A program made the translations under genes and the position numbers. Below are positions 19,200 through 64,000 of a stretch of 64,000 bases of DNA, piece after piece (within the stretch, counting starts at the first letter, position 1; each line of letters starts with the position of its first letter). This DNA is from Obrimoposthia wandeli (Eukaryota): contig CDROCS010001369.1 in the NCBI GenBank assembly GCA_977020255.1, forward strand, positions 248,001-312,000. The letters are read 5' to 3'. The notes beneath the pieces were generated by a model that was given only the letters and a program-made list of their open reading frames with translations, was not told the DNA's origin and ran no database searches.

Positions 19200-19251
19200 C
19201 TGAATATATACATATAAGATATTGATTACAATCTATTTTTTGTTAATCACG

Positions 19252-22976: not shown

Positions 22977-22996
22977 AAAAAAAAGGTGTGAACAGG

Positions 22997-39319: not shown

Positions 39320-39620
39320 TCTAATGGCATTTATTCTTCATGGAATGAAATCATGCAGTTTTTAGTGTATTTTGACGAAATCGAGTTCTATATTTTTAGT
39401 CAAGCTGGAAACAATTCAGATTTCCTTTCTATTTGTGTCAGATAATTCAATTTTTAGAGTATCCTACAAATTCTCAATTATATTGAGGTCAGATGAGTAT
39501 GATGACCAGTCATCCATGTACATAATTTCACTATCAGATAGAACATTTATTGTAGATCAGAAAGTACAGCAATCTGAGTAGAATTTATTTATGATACTGG
39601 TGATTCAGATAAAATATTTT
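39320..39620 (-). mobile_element. Tc1 transposase C-terminal relic (intronic)
   Basis: Minus strand DWSSYSSDLNIIENL*DTLK corresponds to WPxxSPDLNxIENxWxxLK. Confidence 0.65.
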
Positions 39621-40494
39621 GTAATTGTCCGAATTAAATTTAAAGAGATAGTTAATTGATAATCGTCTACCATCTGTTAACATAGCACCCTGAAACCTTC
39701 GGTCAATTTGAATAATGGACTAATCAGAAAATATCAGATTTTACCAATTTTCTAGATTCCAATTACTATAATTATTAAATCATTTCATCTTAGTTTGGGA
39801 TGCCCTTTACTAATTAAAGGAGTTTAGCTGGTCTAGATGTGAAAAGAGCATCTCTTTATTGTGCTTGTGGAAGCATTAATGTCAGAAATGAAATAATTTC
39901 TAACTGCTCATAATGTTATAAGAAGATTAATTCTAACCTTTGTCATCAATATTATTTCCAACCTTCCCCTTATCTTTCGTTTTCTGTTCGTGAGGTAAAT
40001 CCTTTAGTATTCTATTCAATAAGGACTTTTTTTCCAACATTTTACATGTAATATAATTTGGTACATTTGTGACATTTTATTTTGAGCATTATAATAAATT
40101 GTTGATTTGGAATGACTTGAATAAGATATCATAATTATACATATGAATAAAATACCCCCTCCCAAAGTGTGTTCTCACACCAACCGGAAGTGAATATGTG
40201 CGCACACCATCAAGTGCATGTGTGCGCACACAATCACGTGAATACGTCATACACGAAATAGTTGCATAACTTCCTAAGGGTGTCTTGCAACACAATAAGG
40301 GTTTGGCTGAGAAAGGTTATGAAGGTTTGAGGGTATGGTTGTGACCGTCTATGGATGGTCAACACACCTAAAGGGTTATGGTCGTCCATAGATGAAAGGG
40401 TCTAGTTGAGAAAGGTTATGAAGGTTTGAGGGTATGGTTGTGACCATTTATAGTTGATTTCAAAGTTTTAAGTACATGGTTGTGGTTGTCATAA

Positions 40495-42235: not shown

Positions 42236-45200
42236 ACAATTGGAATTTTGTTCAGCATTCTTATTAGGAGGTCTGTGAAAGAATGTCCTTGTCTGACGAA
42301 TTGCGCGTCCTTTGCGAGGCATATTGCACTGAGATTGTAACTAGAATATATTTCCCACAATGCTAAATAACAATGAGGATTAAAAACGGCTAGAAATTCG
42401 AGATATATATGATTGAAAAAGAGCTAAATGTCGTTGGATACCACAATCAATATTAATTCTGGAACAGGCCCACTCGAAGCTTGTCGTTGATTGCCCACAT
42501 AGGTTTTGTCTCAAAATAGACTATAGTCATCGACAAAATTAATTGCATCGTTGGAAATTAAATAAGCGCGAATAGGCGTTTCTAAGGCCCAAAGGCGTTG
42601 CTATGGAGCCACGCCCACCTACCAGGTGTCACACTCTGCCCCATATCTCAACGGGGGGTAGATTTTTTGTTGTTTTCTCATTCCTAATTTTTACTCAAAT
42701 TTTTTTTTTTTTTTTACACTCAAATCTCAAAACCATGAAAGTACCAAAAAAATCGGAATTTAAAACCTACCTTAAAGATGTATTGATGAACTGGCAGACA
42801 ATTAACATTGTAAAACTAAGTAACTTTCATTTAATAAAACTTTTAAAGACTTCGCACGTTTTCTAATTAAAATGCTGCAGATATGTTGGTGCTTGTATTG
42901 ATGATTTCCATACTCGATTTCCACAACTCTATCTTGATAAATCATCAAACCGTCAGCAAGTAATCTTAAATGAAGTTGATTGAATAATATTTCTTTATAT
43001 ATTTTTTGTAAATGGAGGGTAGAATTGAATTTAAAATTGTAATAGTAATTTAGAAATGCTTTATCTTTGGCATGCTGAGCAGAGCATTTGGCGCCTTCAT
43101 CACCAGTTTCATTTACCAAAAGGCCCACAAGGCATTCATATTAAATCGCGCGACTTCAATGAAGAAAACCACGCGTTGTACCCGTTTAAAATTTGAGAAT
43201 AAGTTAAAAAAGTTGCACTTCGTGTACTTCTAATAATTCGCTTTACCAGATACAGCTACACTCCAAATCTCAGCAAGTACCAAGAGAAACGTCGGAGTGA
43301 ACCGGCTACGATGGATTGAAAAACCAAATATCTAATATTTCTTAACATAACTCTAGGAAAACCATCTTTTACGCTATACAGCATATATAGGAAATTCAAG
43401 AAATATTGGGATTTACAAAAACTAATTTAAAGTTTTTCCCGTTTAAGAATTTTTGCTATAAAATATTACATTTCTATTTTGAAGCATATCTGAGTAGCTG
43501 ATATGACTAAGTTTAGGTGTTATCTTACATATTCTCTTAGACTGGAACCTGATGTTGCAGGAACTCTTCATAATGCTTTTTAAATGGAAAAGTTTTTTTT
43601 AAACATTTTTAAACTATTTTAATAAGAAAATATCTGAAAATAACTTTTAAATTTTATTTTATAAAGTTAAAATTTTTAATCCAATTTCTGTTCGAATGAC
43701 ATAACGACTCGACTATCTTCATTGAAGAATCTCTCAACATTTTGCCCAGTATACGTTCGTACACATTGCAATTATGAAAGAGCGTTTTCAGCGTTGACAT
43801 GATCTTCAATATTGGACTCATTATCGTCATGTTCTTCATTTGTTTGATTTAACAATATAGTGAATGTTAAGTCTGTATAATAATTCAAATTATATTCAAC
43901 AGCAAATCTGCTGTCATCTTTCTGTGTGCTCTTCTAAGTAAAGCGCACGGTGCACAAATGCAGGTAGTTGTGCAATCATATGAAGACAATTAGTTACGCA
44001 ATTATACAGGTACAAACATTCGATTAATTAGTTTATTGTGAGATTATAATTATAATTATTTACCTAAAAGTGAATACGTACATTTACTGTAAATCGCATC
44101 ATAATACGTACGGTCTGCTTCACTGAAACAAGACAAGATAATGTTATCAGTCATATCTGCTATTGGAATTAAGTCAAAGGTCAAACATCGGTGAATGACT
44201 TCTAAAGTTTGACTTGAATAACTGTTGGAACGCTGAAGGAACCGAGTAGTTTCATAAAAATACTTCGTCGACAAATTTCGTTTGCTTGTTATTTAAATTG
44301 ATTTTTTGATACGCTTTTTTATATCTTGTATTATCTTTTTTAATAGTACGTAAGTTTTTTGTAAGAAACTTGCCCGATTATAAGGGTGACTGTTAAACGA
44401 ATATATTTATTAATTAAATGTCACTTTAAAGATTATGGCATGGAATTACGAGTGTGACGGATTTTCAAGAGTCAGATTAACGATGTTAAACTTTATTTAT
44501 ATTCTTATCCATCCAGTCTATCCATTTTCAACTTTTGCTCCATCTCTTTTCATGTATTTTACAAAAATAGTGTTTATCCTATGGCAGCAGTCAATTTATT
44601 CAGTTGCTCCGAGTAAAATAGAGTTTATTTAAGTATTATATTGAAATTTTCATTAGTAGGAGCCCAATGTCTCCACTTTGAACATATCTGGACGATTTAT
44701 TGGTGAATTCAATTGTTTCGTTTGTAAAAAATTTTTATTCTTTCATATTCTCATACCATTGACCAAAAATAGGCAAAAACTAGTAGAAAATTATTATTTT
44801 ATTTTATTTGAGTTATTACTTTAAATGCTAATTGATACTAATTGCTATTCTTTGTAATTGCGGGGTTTTCTTCTGTATTTGTAAGCCGCTCATCTATTCA
44901 ACGAATCTTTATTGCATCGTGCGATAATTGATAATTTAGTTTGGGCTCTTTATAGAATGCAATACTTGTTGATTATGTGCGCCTTTTCTGACAAAGTAAT
45001 TTGCACTATTAGTCTTTCTTGAACGCTCTTGCATGTTTGTTTCAATCGATTTTGAGGTAAATATGACTGTATTTTATGTTGAAAATTTCTTTCTCATAAT
45101 AATTTGGGGTACTTGATTACAAATACTGATTACATTTATAGTTTTCCTATGTCGTAATTTTTGCGTTAAATGAAAACATTTTATAGTTAGATGTACTAGG

Positions 45201-46489
45201 ATTATGATATTTTTAATTTCATAAATATTAAATGCTATAATATAATTGGATATGGAAACGTTGATGGAAATGTTAGATCATAATTTTAGATTTAGTTTCC
45301 CAAAATATCATTCCCCAAACATGAAAAGTAAATTAGAAGTTTTATTATTAAAATATATTATACTAATAAATGGTTTAAGTCGGTTAATTGAAATGGATTT
45401 GCATAATAACGTTTTGTACGTATTCCAGTTGATTACTACCTCTTCAAAATAAATTATGGGGTTATCTAATAAACCGCAAAGGTAAAATATAAACATCACG
45501 TGTTAAACAAAACAGCTGTATCCTTTTATTGATTATTATTATTATTACTTTCATCGTAGTAAAGCTTATTAAAGCAATGTAAATGTTGCCGACTTTGAAG
45601 AGATGAAATATTTATTGCGAGTTCAGAGTCAATTCTAAAGTTTCAAACGATAAAATATTTAAACGCATGATTGATAATTATAATACCATGCAATTAGAAC
45701 TCATAAAATTGCTCAACTATTAACTCACTACATCAAATTTAGAAGTAGTAAATCAAGTGACAATTAATTGTTATCGCAGATGATAAATTCTACAGTAATA
45801 TTATTTTGTTAGGCGTCTCCAAAGATTTGCGTTCCGTTATATATGCTGTAATTTTTAGTTCATAATTCTAACAGCTCCCTTCATATCATATTCGGATTCT
45901 AATTTATCCAGCTGATGGTATTGTGTGTTCAATAAATGTGCTTTAACGGGCTTCTTGTAATTTTGTATGGAATTTTCATGAATTTATTTGCGTAGTTTGC
46001 TAAACACATTTTGAGCAAATGCTGATAACATGTTTTCTTCTTAATTAGTTTTTGAATTTATCATTTATATTTTGTTCTGTCATTTCTCAAATGTATTGTA
46101 GTCTGACTCCTATTATGTTATTAGTTGACATGGATGTGCTGGGTGTTTCTTCAATAAACACTTATTTACAAACGACATTATTTTACGAGCTATTCTTTCT
46201 CTGATGGGTAACCCAACCCCCTTTTAGATGATTATTAATACTTTCTCATTTAAAAAAAATTAAAAACCAAACGTGGAGCTATGTTATGAATCATCTACAG
46301 CTTCTTTTAGTAATATTCTGGAGTATTGTATAGCAGTTAGTTCTTAAAATCTATTTTAGATTATGAAATACTTTGTGTAATTAACATTGTTTGTTTTGAC
46401 AAATAAATATTTTCTTCACTTTATAATTGTATGTCATCTCTATTTTGTTTATTTGTGGAACTACATACACCTAATCTTGTTTCTATCAT

Positions 46490-46850
46490 CTTTCCTGATC
46501 ATACCATCCATTGCACTGCTGATGCAGGCTTTTTTGAACGATTCGATTATCATTGAAGAAGGATGAAGTTCCGCAAATGCTTCCAAGACTCACTTGCATA
46601 CGTCAGTCAGTTTGGTGTTAATGTCTTGTTGTCTGACAACATCCACTCGTTCCTCTTTCATCATATCTTATTCTTAAACGACTTGTTCAGGCAAACATCG
46701 AGAGGTTAGAGAGTTGAGGTGAGACCACTCTGTATGACAGCAATGTATGTTTTCATCTGTTTGATACTGTCAGCCAAATAAATCTTGAACATATCTCATA
46801 CAATTAGGAACGCTTATTTTGAAGTTGTCGGGTAGATCACACCTGATTAA
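46490..46850 (-). mobile_element. pogo-like DDE transposase relic (intronic)
   Basis: IAVIQSGLTSTL*PLDVCLNKSFK..W..SFKKACIS..DG matches pogo AVIPGGLTSxLQPLDVxxNKPFK..SFKKCGIS..DG. Confidence 0.75.
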
Positions 46851-47394
46851 AAATGTTTGTTAGTTTTTAAAAAATGCACGAAATCTACGAATTTTACCAA
46901 TATCAGTATTTTAATAAAATAATTTTTTTAATCTTTAGGGACTTACATGCATTTAATTACGGTATCATTCTTCTTTTAAAATTTGACTCCTATCAAAATT
47001 AAAATATATTTGATCAGCTCAACATTCTCTCTTTTAATTCGCGTTTTTTATTCAAATTCCTCAATTGTTTAATTATATATTCAATAAGAGAGAACATATG
47101 GTCACCGTCACTTCACTGTCAATTAAAAATGCATTGGTAATTATATATTATTTTGTTATTTGAAGTAGGTTAATTAAAAATGTTTTAGTACAAATAATTA
47201 TTTTCTATAAAAAAGGTTATTACAAAGGATAAAGGGCAAGTCCGTATAGAGTAAAGGGGGAAAATGTTAAGGCATTTTTATAATTGAAGGAATGGATAAA
47301 ATATTTAAATTTACAGTTTTACTTTGCAGTCTTTTTTTATTGAATAAAAGGGATTGGCAAAAATGTTTCAACTTAAATTTCTGTATTAATGCAG

Positions 47395-47642
47395 GTCACT
47401 GCACGCGAGCCGTATTCGTGTGGCTGTTCATGTGCGGTGCTGGGGGTCCCATTAAGCCAGTAGCGAACCTGACACGTGTTCTTGTGGCTATGTGGGCACA
47501 TGCAACATGCGTCAGTCGTGTGTTGCTGGGTCGGCACTATCCGATCGATATGCTAACCGGCTACGGGGTGGGCCACCTCAACTACTATCTTGTGATCTTT
47601 CTGGCCAAGCAGATGACTTCCACTTGGCCTGGCAGTCACTAG
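47395..47642 (+). CDS. PLPP6: PLPP6/7-like phosphatase, coding exon 2
   Basis: Acceptor taatgcAG|GT CAC rebuilds PSG-H (motif C2) in phase with exon 1, then SRVLLGRHYPIDMLTG (motif C3) and stop TAG at 47640-47642. Joined product 185 aa; intron 38495-47394. Confidence 0.85.
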
Positions 47643-50525
47643 GCTCTGTGTTTATTTGTTGTGAATTTACCTTTCCATTAAATCACTACCTTATCTTGAA
47701 GGTCTTTCAAACCAGCTGGAGTATCCATTGTGTGCTTGTCACAAAACACCGAACATGGCCTTGCTATCTTAAACTCATTGAAAGCGGCTATATGATCCCA
47801 TTATCTAAATGTTACGAAATTTTGAAACTAAGCTTGAATCGTGTTTACAAGTATATTTGTAAAAGTAAGGAAAATATAATTTTTACTACACTCGCTAAAT
47901 CACTGTATAAAACACAAATGGCTTTAAAATATATAAACATGCTATAGTTAAAGTCTAATAACTCAAAAGCATTTCCTGTTTTCCATTTTCTTTTTTTAAA
48001 TTTTCAGAATACTAGTGTCTTCAGCTACTTAATTTTTTTAAACAGTGTTATATTAGCCGGCAGATTGTTATAAAGATTCGGATCATAAATTTCACATATT
48101 CCATCACTATGTTATCTGAGAATTTAATGATTAATATGCAGTCATCATCGTTGCTCCTAATATGCATATGCATGTTCACTGCACAATGTTGAAGAAGACT
48201 AAAAAAGTATTTTGACTTTTGTGACAGAATAAATGTTTGGTAATAAGTAGGATATTGAATTCAATTCTGACATTGATCGAAAGCCAATGAAGTTTTATTA
48301 AATTTTCACTTGTACTAACACTTTTTTTGAATTGAATACAATTCTAACGAATTGAATTTTTTACAAGAGATTTAATTTAACAGGCCGAAAATTTGATAGA
48401 TGATGCAGTAATTCCTTCTGTGTTTTATCCTACTTCGCGGGCAAATTTCCCGACGCAAAGCAGAATATAAAAGCCGGCCATCGCTGTCTTAAAAAAATGC
48501 CGTTCGATTGTTGTCACCTTGATTAATTAATTTAAACTTTAAATTGGAATATTTAAATTCTTAAAACATACATATATATCATTTATTTGAGGTTACAATT
48601 GAAAGATAGAAACGAAGAGAAAGATATATGTAAAACAAAACTCATGAGAAGGCGTAATTTAGTAATATAAGCATTTTGGGCAGACAAAGAGGTTTAAATA
48701 AAGCTTGAGAGTTATTAGGACTATTATGCAAAGGCAGATGAAGATCAAAACTATTGCAAATAAATATGGAGTTGGAAAATGAAAACTGGAAGAAGAATTA
48801 AACCAATATTTTCATATATTGAAATGAGTTAATCTTAATCGGGTTACATCAATATTACTATCCTTGTTAATAGATGGAATTGATACACACATACTTTTTG
48901 AAGAGTATTGTTTATCGTCTTAAGATAATTTCCTTTTGGATGTTGCAGTAAGTTGATATTTTAAAGTACAAGGTAATTTACTAATTAATTATGAAAATTT
49001 ATCAATGTAATATTATGGTTCGTCAGTAATAAATAAGCAGATAGTAGTAGTTTATAACTTTTAAAATCTGAAATTCATTTCTTAAATTAATAAGATATTT
49101 TTAATCAAATTATCTTTTATCTGTTATCTTTTATACAAGTTTATCAGTATTAAATATATTTTATATCAATATTATAACAGTATATTGGAAGTAGTACGTA
49201 TATTAGTAAACATAATATCAGCAACTTTTATGTCTTTAAAAATAGTATTTAAGTATATGAAATTTTCACACTAGAAAAAAATACTCATAAAAGCTATGCT
49301 TATATGAAATTATTTTAACTCCATTTCTATTTTCATTAATATATACATTACACACATGTTTGACACTGAATATCCAATGATTATGTATCTATGTAATTTA
49401 GTAGTCATCCTATACTATAACTCGACTTATCTTACATTTTAATTGAAATTATTACTGATCTTAATCATTCAATAATTGCATGAGTTTTTCAGTTTCAATG
49501 ATCCATAAATAAACGCTCATCCAATTAAAAATCTTTATCAAAACCCTTAAAGCATTTGTTCACTTGATAAAATTCTGATTTAGCGCATGCATTCAACACG
49601 TTATAGTATTTATCATCCAAACTTACACTACATCTTTAATATGATTCAATGTTCATACTTCTATCTTGAAATTGAGATAAATGGTCTCTGGTTATTATTG
49701 AGAAAAGTATTATCTTCGCATCTATGTACTTGATGAAGAAATTTCCTATACTTGCATTTTCGTCAATAATTTTTAAAAGCTGATAATATTGTATGTTTAT
49801 TAATTTATTTACTATTGCTAATAACTGAATCAATTTAAATGAGAACATGAATTTTGAAATTTTGTATTTGTAAAATATTTAAATGGTTCTCTTTTAGTAG
49901 TCATGATATTCCTAGTTGTAAGTAATTATGTAGTAGGATTAATATTTTCCATATAAATATTTCTGATTTGGTTCATTAGCATATAAATGGCTTCTTGAAC
50001 CAATATAGATACTTTCTCTTGTTAAGATTAGGTTTTGAGTAAAATTAAAAATAAATAATTGTTTTATAGTAAAATGAAAATTCTTGAAAGCAAGGTTGAG
50101 AATTAAATAAATTTTAATTTTAAAATCAAGTTAAATTATTAGGACTAAATTAGGAATAAATATTAAGAGGACCACGAAGGTCGTGTATAATGTGTTGTAT
50201 ATAAGGTTAAAAGTAACTTGTAAAAGTGCAAAAAAATAAATAGCACTGTCAGCAAAAAAGAAGCTAATTAAGAAAAGAGAAAAAGAAAATTAATCAAGGA
50301 AACAACAAAGAAGATTGACAGTCAGCAAAGTAGGCATATTATTTTTTAGCCACTATTTACTGACGTTCAAGGGCCAGGTGCAACTTGCCTCAATTGACTA
50401 TATAAGTCTGCACAAGAACCCCATTTTTGAGATCAACCCGGAACGCCAATACAGGACAGCGCTTCCCAGTCACGGTGAGAAATTATAAAACTAGACGATT
50501 AAGTTATTGATTTTTCCAGAGAAAG

Positions 50526-51126
50526 TCAGCTCACAAGAACGATATTCTTATTTAATCGCCGTCAGCACCAAGAACGATATTCTTATTTAATCGCCGTCAG
50601 CACCAAGAACGATATTCTTATTTAATCGCCGTCAGCACCAAGAACGATATTCTTATTTAATCGCCGTCAGCACCATGAACGATATTCTTATTTAATCGCC
50701 GTCAGCACCAAGAACGATATTCTTAATTGATCGCCGTCAGCACCAAGAACGATATTCTTATTTAATCGCCGTCAGCACCAAGAACGATATTCTTATTTAA
50801 TCGCCGTCAGCACCAAGAACGATATTCTTATTTAATCGCCGTCAGCACCAAGAACGATATTCTTATTTAATCGCAGTCAGCACCAAGAACGATATTCTTA
50901 TTTAATCGCCGTCAGCACCAAGAACGATATTCTTAATTGATCGCCGTCAGCCCCAAGAACGATATTCTTATTTGATCGCCGTCAGCACCAAGAACGATAT
51001 TCTTATTTGATCGCCGACAGCACCAAGAACGATATTCTCATTTGATCGCCGTCAGCACCCAAGAACGATAGTCCTATTCTGATCGCCGTCAGCACACAAA
51101 AACAATATTCCTGTTCTGATCGCCGT
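50526..51126. repeat. 35-bp tandem array (~17 copies) in LTR
   Basis: Unit gtcagcaccaagaacgatattcttatttaatcgcc, no spacers. Confidence 0.95.
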
Positions 51127-51190
51127 GGACTCACGAACAACATCCAGAGAAATTAAAGGTATAATTACCGTAAATCGTAAAATTACCCAT

Positions 51191-52280
51191 ATTGTTAAAA
51201 TATAGTTGTTTACATTGACCCTATTTTGAAAGAATATTTAACTTTAAATTGATTATTGTTAAAATATAGTTGTTCACATTGACCCTATTTTGAAAGGATA
51301 TTTAACTTTAAATTGATTGTTGTTAAAATATAGTTGTTTACATTGACCCTATTTTGAAAGGATATTTAACTTTAAATTGATTGTTGTTAAAATATAGTTG
51401 TTCACATTGACCCTATTTTGAAAAGATATTTAACTTTAAATTGATTATTGTTAAAATATAGTTGTTCACATTGACCCTATTTTTGAAAAGATATTTAACT
51501 TTAAATTGATTATTGTTAAAATATAGTTGTTCACATTGACCCTATTTTGAAAAGATATTTAACTTTAAATTGATTATTGTTAAAATATAGTTGTTCACAT
51601 TGACCCTATTTTGAAAAAAATATTTAACTTTAAATTGATTATTGTTAAAATATAGTTGTTCACATTGACCCTATTTTGAAAAGATATTTAACTTTAAATT
51701 GATTATTGTTAAAATATAGTTGTTCACATTGACCCTATTTTGAAAAGATATTTAACTTTAAATTGATTATTGTTAAAATATAGTTGTTCACATTGACCCT
51801 ATTTTGAAAAGATATTTAACTTTAAATTGATTATTGTTAAAATATAGTTGTTCACATTGACCCTATTTTGAAAAGATATTTAACTTTAAATTGATTATTG
51901 TTAAAATATAGTTGTTCACATTGACCCTATTTTGAAAAGATATTTAACTTTAAATTGATTATTGTTAAAATATAGTTGTTCACATTGACCCTATTTTGAA
52001 AAGATATTTAACTTTAAATTGATTATTGTTAAAATATAGTTGTTCACATTGACCCTATTTTGAAAGGATATTTAACTTTAAATTGATTATTGTTAAAATA
52101 TAGTTGTTCACATTGACCCTATTTTGAAAAGATATTCTAATTTCAATTGATTACTGTTAAAATATAGTTGTTTACATTGACCCTACTTTGAAAAGATATT
52201 CAAATTTCAATTGATTATTGTTAAAATATAGTTGTTTACGTTGACCCTATTTTGAAAAGATATTCAAATTTCAATTGATT
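51191..52280. repeat. 64-bp tandem array (~17 copies) in LTR
   Basis: Unit attgttaaaatatagttgttcacattgaccctattttgaaaagatatttaactttaaattgatt. Confidence 0.95.
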
Positions 52281-52692
52281 TGAAAAATCTATAATTTGAG
52301 CTTATTCGCGAGTTAGAGAAACGACTCTAAAATCTCGATTACCCTTAACTTAAAATCGATACGTGGTTCATCCCCACTTGTGTAGAGACTTACAGAAGTC
52401 TTAGGAATTTTTACTATAACTTTTTAGAAGATACGTGCGTAAACGTATTGTTGTGTTTTAGTCTAGTGTGTTACCAATAAACGATTTCCTACATTAGAGA
52501 ACGTTGTTTAAACCCTTCAGATTAAGAGACGTCAAAACAAACACCTTCAGATAAGTAATTGAGACAGGCAACCATAGCACTAAGTAGGCCACGACCAACT
52601 TTAAGACCTGCTTCTATTAGAACTCACGTTGGGGCCCTCCGCACACAAGAGGATCTATACAAGTCTCGTATAGAAACCGCAACATATTAAAG

Positions 52693-52711
52693 TGGTGCCC
52701 CGAGTGAGGAT
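52693..52711 (+). promoter_or_regulatory. Primer-binding site, elongator tRNA-Met-type
   Basis: TGGTGCCCCGAGTGAGGAT is complementary to the animal elongator tRNA-Met 3' end (..ATCCTCAC(A/T)CGGGGCA-CCA). Confidence 0.8.
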
Positions 52712-52734: not shown

Positions 52735-53240
52735 ACAGAGAATAAGTTTCAGCAGAAGAATATAAGTAAATTGAGAATAAGTTTCAGCAGAAGAATATAA
52801 GTAAATTGAGAATAAGTTTCAGAAAAATTGAGAATAAGTTTCAGCAGAAGAATATAAGTAAATTGAGAATAAGTTTCAGCAGAAGAATATAAGTAATTGA
52901 GAATAAGTTTCAGACAAATTGAGAATAAGTTTCAAAAGAAGAGATAAGCAAATTGAGAATAAGTTTCAGAAGAAGATATAAGTAAATTGAGATAAGTTTT
53001 TGAATAAGTTGAGAAATCGAGTAGATTTGTTCCTCGAAGTTAAGAATTTGATAAGTTTTGAGAAATCGAGTAGATTTGTTCCTCGAAGTTAAGAATTTGA
53101 TAAGTTTTGAGAAATTGAGTAGATTGTTCCTCGCGTTAAGAATTTGGTAGAGTTTGTAAAATCGAGTGGATTTGTTCCTCGAGTTCAGTAAATTTGATAA
53201 AGTTGAGAATCGAGTGGATTGTTACTCGAAGTAATTAATT
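52735..53240. repeat. Leader tandem repeats (~35-bp, then ~49-bp units)
   Basis: gagaataagtttcagcagaagaatataagtaaatt and gagaaatcgagtagatttgttcctcgaagttaagaatttgataagtttt units. Confidence 0.85.
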
Positions 53241-53391
53241 GAATAGGTTAAGTCGAGAGACGTGTCCTCGAACTAATTAAAGAGATAAGAAATCGTAAAA
53301 TAAGAAATGTGAAATAAGATAAAATAATAAGTAAATTGATATCGTAAACGAATACATAATTGATAAGACAACGGATAATAGAAAAGGACCC

Positions 53392-55242
53392 GTGTATAAT
53401 ACTATAAGACAAAGTCAGATTCCCCAGGAAGAGATAAATAATAATAAAGTTAACCGAATTGAACAGATTCCCCAAACAGATAACAAAGTAATAGAACAGA
53501 CTAGAGTCGAAGAAAACGTATCAGACAGAGACGTAAATCAATCAGCAGTTTCAACTGACAGTTTTGAGCTGACTGAGTTGTTTGGTGAAATAAACCCAGA
53601 AGAAATTGATAATATTGAAGTTCAAAACCCAGAAGAATTTGAAATTGCCAATCAAGTAGTGATTGAGGAAGTTCAAGCGAATAATATTGAAGAAATAGTT
53701 GAGGAGGATATAATTGAAAATATGGCTCACCCAGGAGCTCAAGCAGATAATAATGCAGGAAATAATGTAGGAGAAATGAATGCAGAACAGTTGGCACAAG
53801 CCTTAAATGCGACGTTGAGACCCAACTTTTCAGGATCATTGCAAGTTACAAAGTTTAAAGGAGATGAGGAAAGTATTTGTGACTTCCTCGCAGAATATTC
53901 GAGTTGTGCAGATGTTCAAGGATGGAACGATAAAGAAAAATGTGTCCGTGTACAGGCACACTTAACCGGATTAGCACTTGAAGTGTATAAACATTTGACA
54001 GAAGCAGAACGTTTAGATTGGGAAACGTTGGAAAATGCTTTTATTGGAAAATTGGTATTGGGAGACTTAGAGAGAATCATGAGAGAACGGAAACAGAAAC
54101 ATGACGAAGGCGTGAATGAATACGCGTATGTTTTGAGAACCTTGGCCGCAAGAGCGTACCCAAGAAGAATAATGAGAAATCTAGAAGGTAACCCTGTAGC
54201 TCCAGAAGCACAAGCAGCGGAAAATAACCGGAACCAAAATGAAATGGCAGAAGTTTTGTTAGACATATTTAGAGGAGGATTGAAAAAAGATATTAAAGTG
54301 TTATTAGCAGTATCAGACACAAATGATTTTGATAACGCCGTACGAAAGGCGAGAGAAATTGAGAAAAATATAAAAAATAACGCAGCATTGGCAATTTATT
54401 CAATGACCGCAGGTGATGACGATAAGACAAAGGTATTTGTGAATAAAACAGAACCGAGTAATTTTCAGAATCGAAATTATGGACAAAATAAGTTTGAAAA
54501 AGTAGATGAATCCAGTAACGGAAACAGAGATAATTTCCGAAGTAGGAATCGAGATGATTCGAGAGGTAGAAATAATAGTGAGTCTTGGAACAGGAATCGA
54601 GATGATTCAAGAGGTAGAAATAGTAATGATTCGTGGAATAGAAATAGAGATGATTCCAGGAATAGATTTAATAGAGATAATTCAGGAAATCGCCAACCTT
54701 GGAGAGGAGACGATAGGAATTACAACGCAAACAGAGGAGAGCGAAGTGACTCTCGATTTGGAAATAATAAAGGAAGTAGTGACGGAAGATTCAATAATCG
54801 AGGAAGCGGTTTTGAATCGAATTTCCGAAGAAATGATTTTAGAGGACGATATGATAACAGACAGAATAGTCGTCGAGTACAGTTCGAAGATGAACAAAAT
54901 AAGATAGATATTCGAGGGAGAATAATGTGTTACACGTGTAAACAAATAGGTCACTATTCAAGAGATTGTACGAGAAGTAAAGAGTTCGGAACTAACAGAT
55001 TTGGAAATAATAATTTCGGTAATAATAATTTTAGAAATAATTATAGAGGATATAATTCACCCCCGCCATGGAATAGAGGTGGTGGATATACTCCACAGCA
55101 ATGGAGACCGAATAATCAGTATACAGATAGACAACAGTCACCAGGTAGATACAATAACTATGCAGACAGACAGCAAGGAGCTGAGAGATACAATAATTAC
55201 GTAGGACAGCAAGGAGCTGAGAGATATAAAAAATTCCGGTAG
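53392..55242 (+). CDS. gag: Gag (capsid-like domain + RG/N/D-rich repeats + CCHC knuckle)
   Basis: FKGDEESICDFL..GWNDKEK..LTGLALEVY, RKQKHDEGVNEYAYVLRTLA, FRGGLKKDI, and knuckle CYTCKQIGHYSRDC (54928-54969). First ATG at 53719. Confidence 0.92.
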   Translation: MYNTIRQSQIPQEEINNNKVNRIEQIPQTDNKVIEQTRVEENVSDRDVNQSAVSTDSFELTELFGEINPEEIDNIEVQNPEEFEIANQVVIEEVQANNIEEIVEEDIIENMAHPGAQADNNAGNNVGEMNAEQLAQALNATLRPNFSGSLQVTKFKGDEESICDFLAEYSSCADVQGWNDKEKCVRVQAHLTGLALEVYKHLTEAERLDWETLENAFIGKLVLGDLERIMRERKQKHDEGVNEYAYVLRTLAARAYPRRIMRNLEGNPVAPEAQAAENNRNQNEMAEVLLDIFRGGLKKDIKVLLAVSDTNDFDNAVRKAREIEKNIKNNAALAIYSMTAGDDDKTKVFVNKTEPSNFQNRNYGQNKFEKVDESSNGNRDNFRSRNRDDSRGRNNSESWNRNRDDSRGRNSNDSWNRNRDDSRNRFNRDNSGNRQPWRGDDRNYNANRGERSDSRFGNNKGSSDGRFNNRGSGFESNFRRNDFRGRYDNRQNSRRVQFEDEQNKIDIRGRIMCYTCKQIGHYSRDCTRSKEFGTNRFGNNNFGNNNFRNNYRGYNSPPPWNRGGGYTPQQWRPNNQYTDRQQSPGRYNNYADRQQGAERYNNYVGQQGAERYKKFR

Positions 55243-55843
55243 ATATAATAATAATAATGTTGACAAGACAAATAGTCGCGAGAGTTCGCCGAAACCAAAA
55301 GGAAATTTTAGTTATGTAAACGATGACAGCGATAGGAATCGCGAGACCGAGCTTCGACGCGAAATAGATTTTGAGGATAGTGATAGTAAATTTGAACGTA
55401 TGTTGGGAATAATTAAAGATTCACCACATACAAAGATGGCGAATTCATCTACGTTGTCGAAACAAGAAAAAAGTCTACACTCGAGAGAAGAGATGAATGA
55501 TTTAATGAACCAAATACTAGAAGCGTATGAGACACCAATAGAGAAAACGTGTAACGCACAACCTATGACTGATCATGTAGAAGCAGCAAGAAATGCTACG
55601 AGTATGGAAAATGTAAAAAAGATAATTAGTGAAGCTAAGGAGACGTTGAATCAACCGTTAGATGAAACGAGTGAAGCTCCAGAAGTTTTGGCCAAATTGC
55701 AAACAATTAAAGTGCACCGATTGGAAGAAGTGCGAGCAGAATTGGTTAAACATAGTCATGATAACTTGGGTTACAAAGAAGTACCACGAGGATTATTGAA
55801 AGGATATGGTCGCTACGTACAGAGATCAAACCAAAAAGGAACG

Positions 55844-56065
55844 ATGAAAATTTCGCTTCGATTAATTTCCGGACAGATTATACATGAAAAACTTAACGTG
55901 TATCAAACAATGAAAACGATTCGAAAAAAGTTGGCAGAGAAACTTGAAATTGATGGAATGAATATGTTGTTCCATTATAAAGGGAGATCACTAGATGATG
56001 AGGACGTACCAGTCCAGTGTGGATATCCAATAGGAAATGAATTAGAGAAAAAATTGATGTCATCA
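55844..56065 (+). other. SUMO/ubiquitin-like domain in polyprotein
   Basis: MKISLRLISGQIIHEKL..LFHYKGRSLDDEDVPVQ..(shift)KIDV aligns by eye with SUMO INLKV..DGS..IRFRFDGQPINETDTPAQ..TIDV. Confidence 0.6.
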
Positions 56066-56574
56066 CTGTAGGACGCCAAGAGTTAGTAGATAATGAAGGA
56101 TTAACGGAGATATTAAACTCTGCGTTAGAAATGATAAAAACGCCTATAGAAATTTTAGACAGTTCAAGCGAAAGCGGAGATAACGATGTAGCTGAAGCTT
56201 GGAACAAGACATCCACACCAGAACCGTACGTAGCTGAATTACAAGACGTGAATTTAGAAAATGAGTTGACGACTCCAGTGGTCGAAGTACCACCAGAACC
56301 AGAGATAATTCAAATCAGACAAGATGAAGTCACGGATACAGCTAACCAAGTGAGACAAAACGAAAACGTAAACCAACTAGGAGGAGAAGACGAAATCTCC
56401 GAAATTGTAGATTTGGATTCACCAATTTGGCATGCTGCATACAAAGATAGACAAGCAGAGCCGATGATGCGACAAAATGAAGAGATTGGCCATGAAGAAG
56501 GACCAAGTCAAGAGATACAGTATAATGGTGAACCGTATGATCCAGGAGAGAATCAAACTGAGTATCAGTATTTT

Positions 56575-56601
56575 CGAAGAGGACCTGGAAGACCTAGAAA
56601 A
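56575..56601 (+). other. AT-hook motif
   Basis: RRGPGRPRK (GRP core flanked by basic residues). Confidence 0.75.
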
Positions 56602-56757
56602 GACGGAAGTATATTACGAAATGTTTTAACTGCACCACAAACTGATGAGGAGAGACATCTAAGCATTGGACAGTTAGCAGCGTCTTTAGAGCAGTATAGT
56701 GCAGAGAGGAATGAAGATATCAGAGGTGATATGAATTCGGAAACTCCAAGTAGTAAA

Positions 56758-57144
56758 GATATACTTACGGGAATTCTCAGGCAAGTGAAGCCGAAGTTGT
56801 TCAAAATGTACAAAGATGAAACAACCGATATAACAGACAATTTGACTAAAGCAGTTAGATCACAAATGTCTGCAGTAAAGAGAATGACTGCGAATCATGT
56901 ATACCATGCATCAATAGATAGATTTTACGACGGTGAAGTTTTAGCGAGATTGTGTGGAAACCATACTACAAATAAAAAGTTAATTACAGCGATCACATAC
57001 CTATGTTTCCAATTGACGGAACGAACGAGCCAACCTCACGAAGTCAAACAAGGAATAAATGAAGCGATGTATTTGATCGAGAATGTGTTACAAAGACGAA
57101 TTGACGAAAACGGAGGTTGGGCAAAATTAAGTGACTACGCTAAA
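56758..57144 (+). other. Bcl-2-like domain
   Basis: BH3-like ILRQ..KMYK..DITDNL, degenerate BH1 TNKKLITAITY, and BH2 VLQRRIDENGGWAKL (cf. Bcl-xL HLEPWIQENGGWDTF). Confidence 0.65.
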
Positions 57145-57246
57145 ACCATTGTGGAAATGAATGAAGACGATGACGAACAATGTCATGAGAATCGTCAAAG
57201 AGAAAATAAACAATACCGTCCAAAAGAAAGAAACAATCAACCAAAT

Positions 57247-59100
57247 ATGTCCACAACAATGATGATGATGATGTTAGTAATGTTCATGGGAATGCAACAG
57301 GCATCAGGATTGATAGCATACGACTGTAGCATACCAAAGATGGGACAAAAGTATTCACTGCTTGACAGCGAAGACTGTCCAGAATCACAACCGTCAAAAT
57401 TATAAGTTAAAGGTGTTGAAAACTACTTTGTGTATCAGGATGTTGATAAAGTACAAGTAGAAGTGAAAGAATGTTCAATCCATTCAAGTTATCACGAATT
57501 CTATTGTGGCCATAGAAGTTTTATGTCGGAAATCACACCTACCACACCGTACAAAGCACATAGGGTTTTGCCGAGAGATTGCGAAGACGCATTTCGAACA
57601 GGAACAATAGAAGTAGACAAGAATTACAAACCTGATGTAAAAATTGGAGTGAGACGATACGAAACAGTCACGAGAGTAGGACAACGATGGGCTGATGGAT
57701 CTTGTGACGGAGGAACAAAAAACGTACGTGGAACCAAAGTAACAGAGTTAGAAATGGACGTAACTTACAAAATTGAATTAAAAACATGGACTGCCAATTT
57801 TGATAAAAAGACACAACGAATGATGAAGTATCCAGAATGTAAAATGACAGATGAATCTTGTTTTACAGGCGAATCCACAATTGTGTATAACGTGAATCCG
57901 AAACAATGCTCTTTAGTATTTTTGAAAGAGATTAGCTTTAATAAAATAAAAGGATTCTTGTATAATAAAGATGGAGAAGGGTTCCTGTATAATAAAAAAG
58001 GAAAAGGATTGCTCAATGAAACAAGACCAATTCCTATGACAAAGACACCTACACTGTTAATGGCAACATCAACAGAAGAAGGATTGATATTTATTAAAAA
58101 GAGAAACAAAGCGCGATGCGGAATGACTGTTAGTACTACAAACTATCCTGGAATAGTTTTGTCCAAAGAAGCAATAGCATTGGCAGAAACCAAGCTAAAA
58201 CCTAGAGATATGCAGCTACACACGTATTTTATTAATAAAATTGATTTCTTATATCATAAAGGATTGATGCAAATGGAACAGTTATATCGGATGATGATCG
58301 AGAGAGATTGCCAGCTAAACAAAGAGATCGTAAGAACAAAGTTAGCATTAGCTATTACGAATCCAGACATGGTAGCACCATTATTACCCTTGGATGAAGG
58401 AGTATTTGCTAAAACCATGGGAGAAGTATTGTATACTTACAAATGTAATAAAGTAGAAGTACAGTTGAGAAAAACAGACTGATGTACGAGTGAATTGGCA
58501 GTAACGTATAATTTAAAAGAACTCTTTGTTGAACCAATCACGAGAATGATACTTCCAAAAGACACTCCAACTAAAGAAATCAGCTGCTCTAATATAATGG
58601 CACCTGAATATCAGATGACGAATGATCTATGGATAACGTTACCTGACCGAAAGCCAACGAAAACCCCAGCGATGATAAAAATGACGAATCTTAAAGGTAA
58701 AATGAAATTCGAAGCGGTAGAAAATATGGAGAACGCAGGATTGTACAATGAAAAAGACTTAAAAGCGGCATGGAACGAAATAATGTTTCCAGTAAAATGA
58801 GCCAGAGTACTTACGGAGATGGTACATCGAGCATTACCGCCAGGAGCTAGATATGCGAATTTCGATATGTTGTTATCGCCAAGTCATTTCAAGGAAGCAG
58901 CACATCAGACACTTAGAAAGATGTGGGGGAAATTCCTTGCTTTAGGACAATTATTTTCGGGTATCATAGGTATTTATGTTATAATTAAATTTGTGCAGGT
59001 AATTATAGCCCAGGTGTTATCTACGTATAGTCTATACAGGATAACCGGAATCACCTGGCAACTTATAATTGGATGTTTTCCATTTTTAGCGAAATATCTA
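57247..59100 (+). pseudogene. env: Envelope: chuvirus-like (class III-type) fusion glycoprotein with internal signal peptide; 3 in-frame stops
   Basis: Hydrophobic MMMMMLVMFMG..ASG|LIAYDC..SLLDSEDC, ECSI..YCGHRS, DGSCDG, INKIDFL..LY..DCQL..LAITNPD, GEVLYTYKC..VEV..CTSELAVT..LFVEPITRMI, GLY..DL..IMFP, MWGKF..GQLFSGIIGIYVIIK. This is the conserved motif string of Chuviridae G. Confidence 0.85.
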
Positions 59101-59460
59101 ATGCACCATCATCACGAGAACGAGTTGCGAGCCCTCAAGAAGGAGCAACATCAAACGAGAACCATGATGCGAGAACCAAGAAACTATCGAGACGACAACG
59201 ACGACGATAATGATAGCCCAGGAGTATATGCAAAGATACCAGGAAAACCAAAGATTCCGTTACCAGACAAGGAAGAAGTGGCGTTAAACCTATATCCAAT
59301 GAAGGAACTAAAGGAAGAGAAGGAAAAGTTCAAGAGAGGCATTTTAATGATAAGATGGCCTAAAGTGAGCTACAGTGAGATTCCACAAGCAGAGGAAAAA
59401 GACAAAAACGATAATTCCAGAAGAATTCTGAAGTCTAGGATATCAAATGAGAATCCAAAT

Positions 59461-59770
59461 GCTCTACCACAAGTAGCAGTAACATTGAACGGAAGAGAAT
59501 ATCTTGCCGAAGTTGATACTGGATCTGCAGTATCAGTACTTCGTAAAGAAATCTTGTCATCTAAAGAATTAAGAGAAGTATGTCCTAGAAAACAGACATT
59601 TGTTAACGTAAATGGTACAGATGTAGTGTCAGAAGGAACACTGAAATGTTCATTGAATATCGATGGAAGAGCATTGCAGTTAAATGCTAGAATATTCACA
59701 GATTGCGGTAGTCCAGTCATGATTGGGATGGACGTAATACGGATGTTTGAAGGAATAATTATATTACCAA
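59461..59770 (+). other. Aspartic protease 1 (retropepsin-like)
   Basis: VTLNGREYLAEVDTGSAVSVL (DTG 59515-59523) and C-terminal VMIGMDVI. Confidence 0.85.
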
Positions 59771-60000
59771 ACAACAAGAGTTATAAGAATGACAGTTCAG
59801 TGAGAGAGATAAAAATGTTGAGAGGACCTATAGTCGAAAAGGAAAAATACACTACGTTCCGTATGGGAAATTCGTATCAAGACAAAAAACAGGAAGCGCT
59901 AGTAAAGTCGATACTTCACTACAAAAATGTAAACCTCGGACCACAAGATATGACGAGGAGGAAAATAACATATGTGAATCTGTCAGAAAAGGATCCCATG

Positions 60001-60993
60001 AGATTCGAGAAAAATAGACGAAAAATATTAGAATTGTACTATTCAAAAGAAATTGCACGTAAAATGGCAAGATCAGGCTTAGAAATGCTAAACGCGACAA
60101 GTAGTTATGGTCATGAGGAAGTCGTACGATGCGTATGGTGTAGAGTAAAGTTTAGAGAGTGGGAAAAGAATGAAAACCCAATGAGACGTCATAAAAGAGA
60201 TGCACCAAATTGTCCATTTCTTTTGAAACTGAAAACTTCAAACGTACCAGAAATCCAAAAGGGAAAAGCGCCCGATTTCGATTACAGTGACGAGTTTCTA
60301 AAAGGAGAATCAGCTCTAATAGTAGGTAGAGTAATAACAAATAGCCGAATTGAAGATATATTCGAAGTTATGCGAGAAGTAAACGAATGTGACGAACAAT
60401 ATCGAGAATTAACTTTCGAAGATCCAAGACTTAAAAAATTGGCAAAAAAGGGACTTTTTGCTATAAAAAAGGATGGTAAAGACGTGATTAAATGCCACAA
60501 GTGTAAAAAAGAACGAATTATCGATAGATATACTCTTGAGCTACCTAAGAAAACCTTACATCATGAATTTTGCGAGTTTTGTATGTTAAAAAACAAAATA
60601 AAGCAAAAAGAACAGAAAACCGAATGTATAATCGAATACCAAATCACACGGAAAGAGATTTTGGCTCAACAAGACACACCGGTAATGTCATTCGTGAGAA
60701 GGTTATATCCAAAAGAAGCAGAAAGAATCAGAGATTTGGTAGAATTAAAAATAAAAACTACGCGAAACGGATACGGATCAATTTTTGAATTACTAAAAGA
60801 TAAAGATGACAGTACAATTGAAACAAAAGAGAAAGAGTACATAAATGAACTAGAATACGTACTAGAAGATCCGGAATGCGCAGTTTGCATGGTCAACAAA
60901 ATATAAGTTGCCTTTTTACCATGCGGACATGTAAGAACATGTCGGAGATGTGCGAAGGAAATGGTATCATGTCCGATTTGTCGAAGAATAATA
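60001..60993 (+). other. Inhibitor-of-apoptosis module: BIR + degenerate BIR + C3HC4 RING
   Basis: BIR1 MARSG..VRCVWC-x16-H-x6-CPFL with exact spacing (C60130, C60139, H60190, C60211). BIR2 EQYRELTF..LAKKGLF..DVIKCHKC. RING CAVCMVNKI*VAFLPCGHVRTCRRCAKEMVSCPICR (60877-60993; one stop). Confidence 0.92.
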
Positions 60994-61107
60994 GATCGAC
61001 AAGTGAGAAATATTAGATTTCACTATCCAAACAAAGGAAGTGGACCGACAGAGTGTAATAATTCAATAAATACAATATACCACATGGGAAACATAAATGG
61101 AGCACAG

Positions 61108-63599
61108 CGACCAGCAGCTATCATTAGAGTGAATAATTTAAGAGTAAAAGCCTTAATTGATACAGGTGCTGTAGCTTCGATAGTAAGTGAAGATTGTTTG
61201 ACAGAGGAACAGAAACGAACAATGGCAGAACCAGATGAATTCTTGGTATCGGTCAACGGAGACCCTGTAAAAGTGACGGGAATATTACCATGTACATTTA
61301 TAATTGGACGTAATACGATCACTATACCATTTAGAATCATGAAAGAATGTCCTGAACCTACAATTTTAGGAATGGATGTACTATCACAACTTAAAGGGAT
61401 AAGTATTGATTTACAAGATCCAAGATTGAAGGATAGCACATCAAACAGACAAATAAACCAAATTGATGTAATTATAGAAAATCCTATAAAAATCGGTAAA
61501 AGATCGCAATTTCTCATTCAAGGTCACACTTTATCAGAAGATAAAGGACCAGTTGTGTTCGAACCATCACGAGATTTCATAGAGAAATACGAATTACCAG
61601 TTGTGAGTACAGTATGCCTGATTGAAAACCACAAAATACCAGTTAGACTGATGAATACAACCAACAATGACATCCTATTATACAGAGGAATGAGGTTGGG
61701 AAAGATAGCACAGATGGAGAATCCCACTGTGTGTGCTATGAAACTCGATAAAGATACGAATGATTACGAAGAAATAGTAATCCAATCAGAAAGACTGACA
61801 ACTAGAGAAAAGAAACAATTACTTGATCTAATACATAAATTTCCGAAAGTAATTGCAAAAAATCCATATGACATAGGAGAAACACCTGTCATAAAACATA
61901 CAATACCACTGACAGAAGACAAAGTAGTCAGAAGAAGACCATATCGAGTACCATTACAGTTACAAGATGAAGTAAAAAGTCAGATTGAAGATATGTCTCA
62001 AACAGGAGTAATTAGACCGAGTTTTTCACCATTCTCAGCACCTGTGGTGTTGGTAAAAAAGAAGGATGGGAAAATGAGATTCTGTATAGATTTCAGAGAA
62101 CTGAACAAGATCACAAGAAAAGATGTGTATCCATTACCTAGAATCGAAGAGATGCTCGATAAATTTGGTAATTCAGATTATTTTACGACATTAGATTTGC
62201 AGAGTGGATACTGGCAAATCGAGATAGAGGAAGAGGATAAACACAAAACAGCCTTTTCCTGCGGAGATGGATTGTACGGATGCGAAAAGATGCCATTCGG
62301 ACTGACAGGAGCTCCAGCAACATTTCAGCGTTGCATGAATTTTGTACTCGCATCGTGTGCAAACACGATGGTTTATATCGATGACATAATAATATTTTCT
62401 AAAACGTTCGAAGAACATTTAAAATATCTTGAAGTTGTATTTAAAAGACTGGAAAACGCTAAATTAAAAGTTAAACCTACAAAATGCGAATGGGCTAAAG
62501 AGCGAGTAACATTTTTAGGACATATAGTATCGAAAGAAGGCATTCGACCTGATCCAGCAAAGATCGAGAAAGTAAAAGCACATTTAGCGCCAAAGACTGT
62601 TAAGGAAATACAGAGTTTTTTAGGTCTTGCGAACTATTATAGACGATTTGTTGAACATTTTTCAGATATAGCAACACCATTGAGAAAGTTGACGAGGAAA
62701 GATGAGAAGTTCATATGGGAGAAGAAGCACAACAAGCGTTCGAACATTTAAAAGAAATACTAATAAAAGCACCAATATTAGCGTTTCCAGATATAAACCG
62801 ACAATTCATACTAATGACAGATGCAAGTAACTATGCTGTAGGAGCAGTATTGGGACAAGAGGATGACGAAGGAAGAGAACACGTCATCGCGTATGCGAGT
62901 AGAGGATTAAACAGAGCCGAAAGAGGATACTCTGTTATTGAAAAGGAATGTCTAGCCATAGTGTATTCATGTAGACAGTACAGACACTACTTGCTAGGAC
63001 AAAAAGTATTCCTGTATACAGATCACAAACCACTACAGTTCTTATATAAACATAGAGATGAGATGAGTAGATTAAACAGATGGTTTCTAAAATTGGCCGA
63101 ATTCGATCTAGAAATCCATTATAGAACCGGAAAGTCGAATGGTAACGCAGATTGTTTGTCGAGATTGACAAATGTAGACGAGAAAGGAAACATAATTCCA
63201 GAAGAAGATGAAACCAACGACCAAAAAGGAGAAGCAAATCTACTAACGATTTTGCTGAAGACGGGTAAAATAGACAAAGAGATCATCAAAGAACAGAAAG
63301 AAGATGAAGAATTGAGTCTAATCAAAGAACTGTTGGTGAAAGGAGATCTAAACGATGAAATGACGAAAAAATACTCGATAAAAGAAGGAATCTTGTATAT
63401 TGTCAACAATGTCGGAAAGATAGTAGTAGTAATTCCGAAGTCATTGAAGACAGCAGTAATGATCCAGTACCACGATGGAACCTTAGGAGGACATCTGTCA
63501 GGGCGAAAGACAATAGCCAGAATCAAAGAGAAGTACCATTGGGATGGTATGGAAGACGACATAAAACAATGGTACTATGGAACTAAATGGTATTACTAA
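61108..63599 (+). pseudogene. pol: Pol: protease 2, RT, RNase H, N-terminal integrase; one frameshift, integrase core missing
   Basis: ALIDTGA (61159), RFCIDFRELN, LDLQSGYWQI, MPFGLTGAPATFQ, YIDD (62374). Shift at ~62718, then TDASNYAVGAVL, YASR, EKECLAIV, TDHKPL, NADCLSR, YHDGTLGGH..YHWDGM, after which homology breaks at ~63570. Confidence 0.95.
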
Positions 63600-64000
63600 T
63601 AGAATTAAATAGAATTATTACTAATAGTACTAAATAGAACTAAATACTAATGGTACTAAAAGAACTATGACAGTACTGAAGCAGGACTAGCCAGTCAGGA
63701 AGAAAAGGAACCGGCCTGTGGTCACATACTGCACGGTACACCAAAAAGACTCAAACAAGAATACCACGATGTAATAATGGTATTACGTAATTCACATGGG
63801 AAAAGAGACCTAATGAGAGTTCATTTAATCGACGCAGACACTGAAAAGATAATTTGTCAGATGGACACCAAATACTTCGACGGAAAGACAATTGTATGTT
63901 GTATACCGGAATCTCACCGGTTAGACACAGATCAAACGGAAGTATCTGTAAGGTTGAGCGTAATAAAAGGATTTCATTCGCCAAACCAACCGGAAGTTAC

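Follow-up and report, generated by a model that had tools for sequence, protein, structure and literature searches.

A decayed, probably Burro-like Ty3/Gypsy GAG-ENV-POL element with accessory domains on both sides of pol in a flatworm genome

The stretch of DNA considered here (the window) comprises 64,000 nucleotides of the Obrimoposthia wandeli assembly GCA_977020255.1 (contig CDROCS010001369.1, positions 248,001 to 312,000 of the forward strand), and from position 50016 onward it holds what is very probably a decayed copy of a Burro-like Ty3/Gypsy GAG-ENV-POL element, a young insertion, now broken, of a high-copy family in a rhabditophoran flatworm. The parts of the element described below lie on the plus strand unless stated otherwise. 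The element is preceded by a 4-bp target site duplication (TSD), CTCT at 50016..50019, with identical bases after the 3' long terminal repeat (LTR) on the window's contig. The 5' LTR (50020..52684; 2,665 bp; TG...CA) contains two tandem arrays, one of a 35-nt unit repeated 17 times (50525-51126) and one of a 64-nt unit also repeated 17 times (51190-52280). The 3' LTR, again TG...CA and with fewer 64-nt units than its counterpart, lies beyond the window (L031:7448-9313), so that the element ends ~8.3 kb past the window end and the copy has a total length of 22.3 kb, including an internal loss of ~1.3 kb. Eight nucleotides past the 5' LTR stands a primer binding site (PBS; 52693..52711) of 19 nt complementary to the 3' end of the host tRNA-Met(CAT), followed by a leader with tandem repeats of 35-, 57- and 49-nt units (52738..53232). 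Host tRNA-Met(CAT) genes matching the PBS yielded 55 pattern matches, and ARAGORN assigned Met to 7/7 genes on L049 and called none on L048. Such genes form tandem arrays with a period of ~284 bp on L049 (G000:C2252) and G000:C2837, a single contig holding 38 matches or more; the tRNA they encode is the element's primer. With TG...CA LTRs, a TSD, a tRNA PBS, a Ty3-like reverse transcriptase (RT) and the order protease (PR), RT, RNase H (RH), integrase (IN), the element has the properties of Ty3/Gypsy elements (Metaviridae), and it shares the position of env between gag and pol and a platyhelminth host with the flatworm GAG-ENV-POL errantiviruses. The non-tandem parts of the two LTRs differ at 8/786 positions, and a median of 2.0% separates the env block from that of 29 sister copies; the insertion is therefore young.

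The original prediction, that the eight open reading frames (ORFs) from 53392 to 63599 belong to one polyprotein and are not separate genes, holds. The ORFs share a common frame (56041-62751) in which the four predicted stops, at 57403, 58480, 58798 and 60904, are all present, and motifs do continue through them: the fusion glycoprotein family PF24664 is matched in four consecutive pieces over three stops, and a RING domain spans 60904. When 31 sister loci were examined at the homologous codons, the stop was absent from every covered copy (0/30 for 57403, 0/30 for 58480, 0/29 for 58798 and 0/1 for 60904, where a further 14 copies have frames reaching upstream of that position). Because the sisters lack these stops, we attribute them to decay; stop read-through was ruled out as an explanation on the same grounds. 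Three frame breaks complete the picture. Across the break near 56050, a single open frame exists in 24/29 covered copies, with four stopping elsewhere in the interval and one shifted, and for each of the breaks near 55240 and 62720 the single fetched copy that spans it is open. The break near 62720 is not private: in 14/71 of the other top-scoring copies the similarity extends through the query's out-of-frame end, a figure obtained from a ranking that favours copies with the same break. One sister copy, among 114 scored env matches, maintains a single uninterrupted frame of 5,461 codons stop to stop. Part by part, this long-frame sister contains Gag, Env, PR, BIR, RING, PR, RT, RH, a full IN, two DSPc domains and hydrophobic segments, and three RING-H2 ORFs come after its frame. 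The predicted length of 3,300-3,400 aa was too short, since the frame runs on past the integrase and beyond the window end to ~5,460 codons. The domain order in both the window copy and the sister does place an accessory block between gag and pol, as had been proposed.

Gag (53335..55242, ending at a frame break) has a capsid region homologous, at E 1e-23 to 1e-30, to that of relatives (hereafter, a set of 12 long-ORF metagenome polyproteins, P0093-P0121, P0242 and P0243), along with R/N/G-rich repeats and one CCHC knuckle at ~54928-54972 (Pfam). It is followed by a spacer and a ubiquitin-like (Ubl) domain (55205..56071, again ending at a frame break), the latter at ~55856-56023 with a match to PF00240 below cut-off (E 0.0013) and a homologous region in 6 relatives. 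An acidic linker contains an AT-hook-like sequence, RRGPGRPRK (56575..56601), recognised by its motif only. Beyond a Bcl-2-fold domain, discussed next, a probable internal Env signal sequence (57247..57309) is suggested by hydropathy and by the relatives, as it is weakly hydrophobic here and clearly so at the equivalent place in P0094, P0098 and P0107. The fusion glycoprotein itself (57310..59160; PF24664, Monjiviricetes-type), interrupted by the stops at 57403, 58480 and 58798, has 14 cysteines in its ectodomain and a transmembrane (TM) segment at ~58963-59019; a furin motif was looked for in Env and none was found.

The assignment of 56743..57162 to the Bcl-2 fold, with a BH2-like motif, is supported by a structure model. 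Neither a sequence search of 1.84 billion representatives nor one against PDB sequences gave a match, Atlas matches were below 0.9 and unrelated, and folding the single sequence yielded a predicted local distance difference test score (pLDDT) of 39. Aligned with two relatives, the region has Pfam Bcl-2 as its top match, at E 0.041 and below cut-off (2/3 members), and the model made with these relatives reaches pLDDT 65. Comparison of this model with 48,161 chains returned cellular and viral Bcl-2-fold proteins as the first 35 of the 50 chains listed, the best at Z 9.8 with a root-mean-square deviation of 3.8 over 129 residues and the first unrelated chain at Z 5.3. Foldseek agrees weakly (E 0.02-0.14), and a test for BH motifs detected BH2 only, with 0/100 shuffles. 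Despite the low Z, a chance resemblance appears unlikely because the top chains form an unbroken run of a single family.

Two aspartic proteases recognised by Pfam, the first at 59461..59760 (DTG at 59515) and the second at 61102..61401 (DTG at 61159), enclose a module resembling inhibitor of apoptosis (IAP) proteins (59986..61020), which consists of a BIR, a second BIR-like zinc motif and a C-terminal RING within which the stop at 60904 falls. The first BIR (BIR1) matches PF00653 at E 1.4e-13; BIR1 and the RING match IAP proteins, the RING being like that of cIAP/XIAP, and the module thus has the BIR and C-terminal RING that characterise an IAP. The second zinc motif, at ~60400-60591, is weak (Pfam E 0.0068, below cut-off), its score against BIR1 being reached by 45/1000 shuffles. 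A 115-aa spacer (61432..61776) occupies the place of Burro's dUTPase-like domain and has no match in Pfam or among PDB sequences. The RT (61867..62751, Pfam; YIDD at 62374, frame break near 62720) has Ty3 RT as its best PDB match (E 2.5e-69) and is followed by RNase H (62790..63104, Pfam) and by the start only of the integrase zinc-binding domain (63432..63573, Pfam), which is cut off. The integrase core has been lost from the window copy: 87 nt of AT-rich filler (63574..63660, no strand assigned) stand for the ~1,365 nt of integrase core and C-terminal domain found in a sister copy, and loose ends occur at the same two places in the contigs of run X1.

The frame does not end with the integrase. 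A tail begins at 63661..64000 and runs on beyond the window on L031, where it comprises, in order, a beta-rich domain, a dual-specificity phosphatase (DSP), a pseudophosphatase, four hydrophobic segments, the RING-H2 ORFs and the 3' LTR, as it does in the long-frame sister. For the beta-rich domain, an IPT/TIG score of 0.76 is a lead only. The first phosphatase domain (L031:1800-2237) has an intact HCxxGxSRS motif and the acid-loop Asp, with DUSP10/MKP5 as its best match (E 2.6e-24); the second is without the catalytic Cys and Arg and is hence a pseudophosphatase. A metagenome scan with the phosphatase returned 7 loci, none of them similar to any other part of the element. The phosphatase, membrane tail and RING-H2 ORFs, lying beyond the window, were missing from the domains originally listed. 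Among those that were listed, the Bcl-2 fold, fusion glycoprotein, BIR, RING and two proteases stand, Ubl and the second BIR are weak, and the AT-hook is a short motif.

It could be argued that the middle block is a nested insertion or a set of captured host genes and that its ORFs are separate genes, given that the frame of the window copy is broken into eight pieces and that its IAP, DUSP and Bcl-2 cargo resembles host genes. However, only one PBS-like site is present in the entire window, and the sister copy has its single uninterrupted frame. Pattern counts in the assembly were 5,709 for the LTR-PBS junction, 6,415 for BIR and 6,084 for the phosphatase P-loop (0 for reversed-pattern controls), and since the BIR and phosphatase counts match that of the LTR-PBS junction, the cargo is a fixed part of the element family. 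Moreover, the depth of the contigs of run X1, when summed, stays level over all 30 bins (0.60-1.02 million), the 15 listed joints have a depth of at most 57, and the relatives are colinear, each in a single ORF. The original prediction had named a nested insertion as the finding that would overturn it; none was found, and frame, counts, depth and colinear relatives refute nesting or separate genes for this family, leaving that explanation extremely improbable. The family thus numbers ~6,000 copies in an assembly in which both haplotypes may be represented; if each copy is reckoned at 17-22 kb, this may amount to 7-9% of all assembled sequence.

The cargo is not only present but apparently maintained. 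The ratio of non-synonymous to synonymous differences (pN/pS) between the window copy and the long-frame sister, the one pair used, was computed for 19 segments and is 0.04-0.42 in 18 of them: 0.09 for Bcl-2, 0.11 each for Env, PR1, DSP and the pseudo-DSP, and 0.42 for BIR1. Gag was left out, since an indel upset its alignment without gaps, and the value for RING-H2 c (81% identity) may suffer from a similar effect. In 30 env stretches, 31/45 shared variants fall at third codon positions. As far as sequence comparison can tell, these values show purifying selection on the accessory domains.

The relatives provide a view of what is constant in this type of polyprotein. In an RT tree of 44 rows, the window element, on a long branch of its own, and all 12 relatives form one branch (97/98) set apart from 31 other Ty3/Gypsy RTs. 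The relatives are 58-64% identical to the element in RT and share with it the order Gag-Ubl-Env-PR-PR-Pol and a C-terminal membrane segment: PF24664 Env precedes pol in 8/12, two or three protease-like domains occur in 8/12, and a hydrophobic segment lies 54-110 aa from the C-terminus in 10/12. Against the element's last segment, a profile of their C-terminal ectodomains gives no more than a weak match affected by composition bias (E 0.0005-0.013 with 4 sequences searched), and we therefore claim a shared C-terminal layout rather than homology. They differ from the element in cargo, as BIR or DSPc is found in 0/12 and ankyrin, C2H2 fingers or a third protease in their stead. A Bcl-2-like region is present in P0094 and P0243, and P0243 has the published Burro set of Ubl/SUMO (PF11976), Env and ankyrin, the last also seen in P0113. 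Between the first two proteases, P0243 has ankyrin repeats and P0098 has C2H2 fingers, and a third aspartic protease domain follows the integrase in P0098, P0107, P0113, P0118, P0121 and P0242. These comparisons are our grounds for treating the core of the polyprotein as fixed and its cargo slots as exchangeable.

A caveat of the original prediction, that planarian Burro elements might already embody part of this architecture, proved correct. According to the main text of Arkhipova and Yushenova (2019; PMC6431247), planarian Burro/GYPSM1 has one ORF of 4,873-5,140 aa with Gag, MATH, Ubi2/SUMO-like, BCL2-like, in-frame mononegavirus-like env, BIR, ankyrin, dUTPase-like and PR-RT-RH-IN domains, the env sitting between BCL2 and PR, and a Burro-like ORF of Dugesia tigrina lacks MATH, as does the element described here. 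As the same text already proposes Burro elements to be integrated proviruses that interfere with apoptosis and ubiquitination, neither the core design nor the link to apoptosis is a discovery of ours. BURRO1 is described as expressed upon loss of SMEDWI-2 (PMC8532177). The element shares with Burro1-4/GYPSM1 of Schmidtea mediterranea and with the D. tigrina element the Ty3/Gypsy affiliation, a single, Gag-first ORF of ~5,000 aa, tandem repeats, thousands of copies and a flatworm host, and has the corresponding parts in Gag, Ubl (below Pfam cut-off), BCL2-like, in-frame env, BIR and PR-RT-RH-IN. It is quite possible, although we lean against it, that the element is simply an ordinary Burro-group member whose extra parts are already contained in published figures or Repbase entries, all the more since six GAG-ENV-POL elements of 14.5-18 kb are reported from Schmidtea in PMC13524379. 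However, 22.3 kb compares with >30 kb (internal region up to 25 kb) for Burro, one CCHC knuckle was found in both copies scanned versus two or three, and MATH_TRAF, Smc and ankyrin had no Pfam match in this element. In addition, the word phosphatase is absent from the main text of both PMC6431247 and PMC13524379, and no dugesiid is among the best 120 COX1 matches listed, Burro being known from Dugesiidae. The IAP with RING between two proteases, the DSP, pseudo-DSP and membrane tail after the integrase and the three RING-H2 ORFs before the 3' LTR further set the element apart. We thus prefer to call the element Burro-like and do not claim strict Burro membership, since size, knuckle number and MATH/ankyrin differ; an RT homolog search returned no named flatworm element in a listing crowded by proteins with several RT copies.

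The second group that invites comparison are the HSV/gB-type GAG-ENV-POL errantiviruses of Platyhelminthes, Nematoda and Bryozoa described by Chary and Hayashi (PMC13524379), among them nine flatworm gB-type elements including the Schmidtea six. Gene order, Ty3/Gypsy pol, multiple copies and an env flanked by signal and TM segments are common to both. By contrast, their main text is silent on accessory domains, apoptosis, BIR, Bcl and phosphatase, and for 8/9 flatworm elements the study gives no tRNA type, unlike the tRNA-Met site here. Our literature search found no description of a phosphatase or post-integrase membrane tail in an LTR element, although Burro figures, supplements and Repbase entries may show some. 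We did not find the post-integrase phosphatases and membrane tail, the IAP between two proteases or the RING-H2 ORFs in the texts consulted.

How might such an element operate? Genomic RNA would be translated into one membrane-threaded polyprotein. Its aspartic proteases would cleave it where it faces the cytosol, and signal peptidase would cut wherever a signal sequence lies within the chain. Replication would proceed in the usual manner through Gag and Pol, the latter on the cytosolic side. Env would be inserted in the endoplasmic reticulum as a type I fusion protein, permitting particles to move between cells, perhaps aided in cell-to-cell spread by one or more type I membrane proteins from the C-terminus. 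Its signal sequence would remain at the C-terminus of the Bcl-2 fold, where it could serve as a membrane anchor. The first cargo slot would be the stretch bracketed by two proteases, occupied by the IAP here and, in the relatives, by ankyrin or C2H2 fingers. The second would follow the integrase, with the phosphatases here, a third protease or ankyrin in the relatives, and one or more type I membrane proteins at its end. The Bcl-2 fold and IAP may counter apoptosis, the phosphatase may damp MAP-kinase-type signalling and the RING proteins may act as ubiquitin ligases that remove host factors. Most likely, then, the cargo would keep the producing cell alive and dampen stress or immune signalling.

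Large DNA viruses carry host modulators of these very kinds, namely the IAP and PTP of baculoviruses and the VH1 phosphatase and Bcl-2-fold proteins of poxviruses. The classes IAP, Bcl-2 fold, dual-specificity phosphatase and RING E3 recur here, in this case as fused parts of a retroelement polyprotein; no sign of a descent of the cargo from large DNA viruses turned up, no search having been aimed at this. It is tempting, if decidedly speculative, to propose an infectious, complex retrovirus-like clade of flatworms, with a self-processing polyprotein, protease-bracketed exchangeable cargo slots and a two-part envelope made of a fusion protein and C-terminal attachment glycoproteins. Its cargo, a parallel to the host-control kits of poxviruses and baculoviruses, would consist of a Bcl-2 fold, an IAP, a MAPK-type phosphatase with its decoy and three RING-H2 ligases, and by keeping infected stem cells alive it would have permitted the rise to thousands of copies. 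We regard this full scenario as unlikely in its entirety. A less exotic possibility, to which we would give a little more room while still doubting it, is that the element moves inside cells only and that Env and the membrane tail perform another job, such as assembly of particles at membranes, in a non-infectious element. Errantiviruses express env by splicing, and unlike them a single ORF yields Env, Gag and Pol in equal amounts; also, the copies are ~2% different, resembling a burst within the genome. Yet the Env ectodomain, its cysteines and TM segment are conserved under purifying selection, and Env is kept in 8/12 relatives.

Several points tell against our account of a Burro-like element with host-control cargo. 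Cleavage sites and topology were read from hydropathy only, and we infer infectivity and suppression of cell death, as we do all cargo functions. The best Z of the Bcl-2 region is under the tool's caution level (~13 for helical proteins), its Pfam match is below cut-off and sequence searches alone are empty. The class III nature of Env is taken from its Pfam family and the literature, and the kinship with Burro is an argument from architecture only. The evidence for selection stems from one copy pair with small counts (6 synonymous and 11 non-synonymous for BIR1), and most copies are broken, frames >3,000 codons holding 3/114 and 7/72 scored matches. What the family adds is cargo that is selected, as numerous as the LTR-primer junction and variable between relatives in fixed slots. 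Whether Burro-type elements are infectious and interfere with cell death in the stem-cell systems of flatworms can be asked with the defined domains that it offers, and with this family the Burro-type group probably reaches beyond Dugesiidae.

The latter point depends on the host. COX1 is multi-copy in the assembly and, read with code 9, has triclads (68-72%) and a prolecithophoran (68%) as best named matches, so that the host probably lies outside Dugesiidae, to judge from these matches. One contig (C109) holds a flatworm-type COX1 together with a copy of the element. Near-identical COX1 copies of this type inside long contigs (C109, C652 and C736 among others) are probably recent nuclear insertions of mitochondrial DNA, and many bacterial contigs are also part of the assembly. 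A marine metagenome carries element sequence, with matches in 28/30 bins; no RNA data set is among those listed with element sequence.

Other traces of the family and of further mobile elements surround the insertion. A sister copy on L033 and L035 is 93-97% identical in coding sequence, with LTRs that match those of the window copy at the ends only (75-86%), which suggests that the LTR interior has been swapped between subfamilies. An LTR of the family lies in opposite orientation ~6 kb past the 3' LTR (L032:5158-6588). In the window, 3120-5429 probably represents a solo LTR from a related subfamily that has diverged, 72% identical at the 5' end and 91% in part of the 3' end, with other tandem arrays between, and short LTR-3'-end-like sequences at 22904-22977 and 30564-30713 are probably ends of more related LTRs. 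A decayed ordinary Ty3/Gypsy fragment with CCHC, RT and RNase H (8065-10389) is unrelated in layout. It is followed by a Tc1/mariner-type DDE transposase fragment (11901-12512) and by short ORFs on both strands (15678-19683), two of which were scanned and gave no Pfam match; we take them to resemble a decayed polinton-type DNA polymerase B and a TATA-binding protein-like fragment. A GC-richer, decayed non-LTR retrotransposon with RT and zf-RVT occupies 23858-29649. Finally, two exons, ~9 kb apart, of a host gene for a PAP2-family lipid phosphatase lie at 38095-47642 and end 2.4 kb upstream of the element, and an inverted repeat at 40493-42241, whose 123-nt arms are 84% complementary and spaced by 1.5 kb, is probably a non-autonomous DNA transposon.

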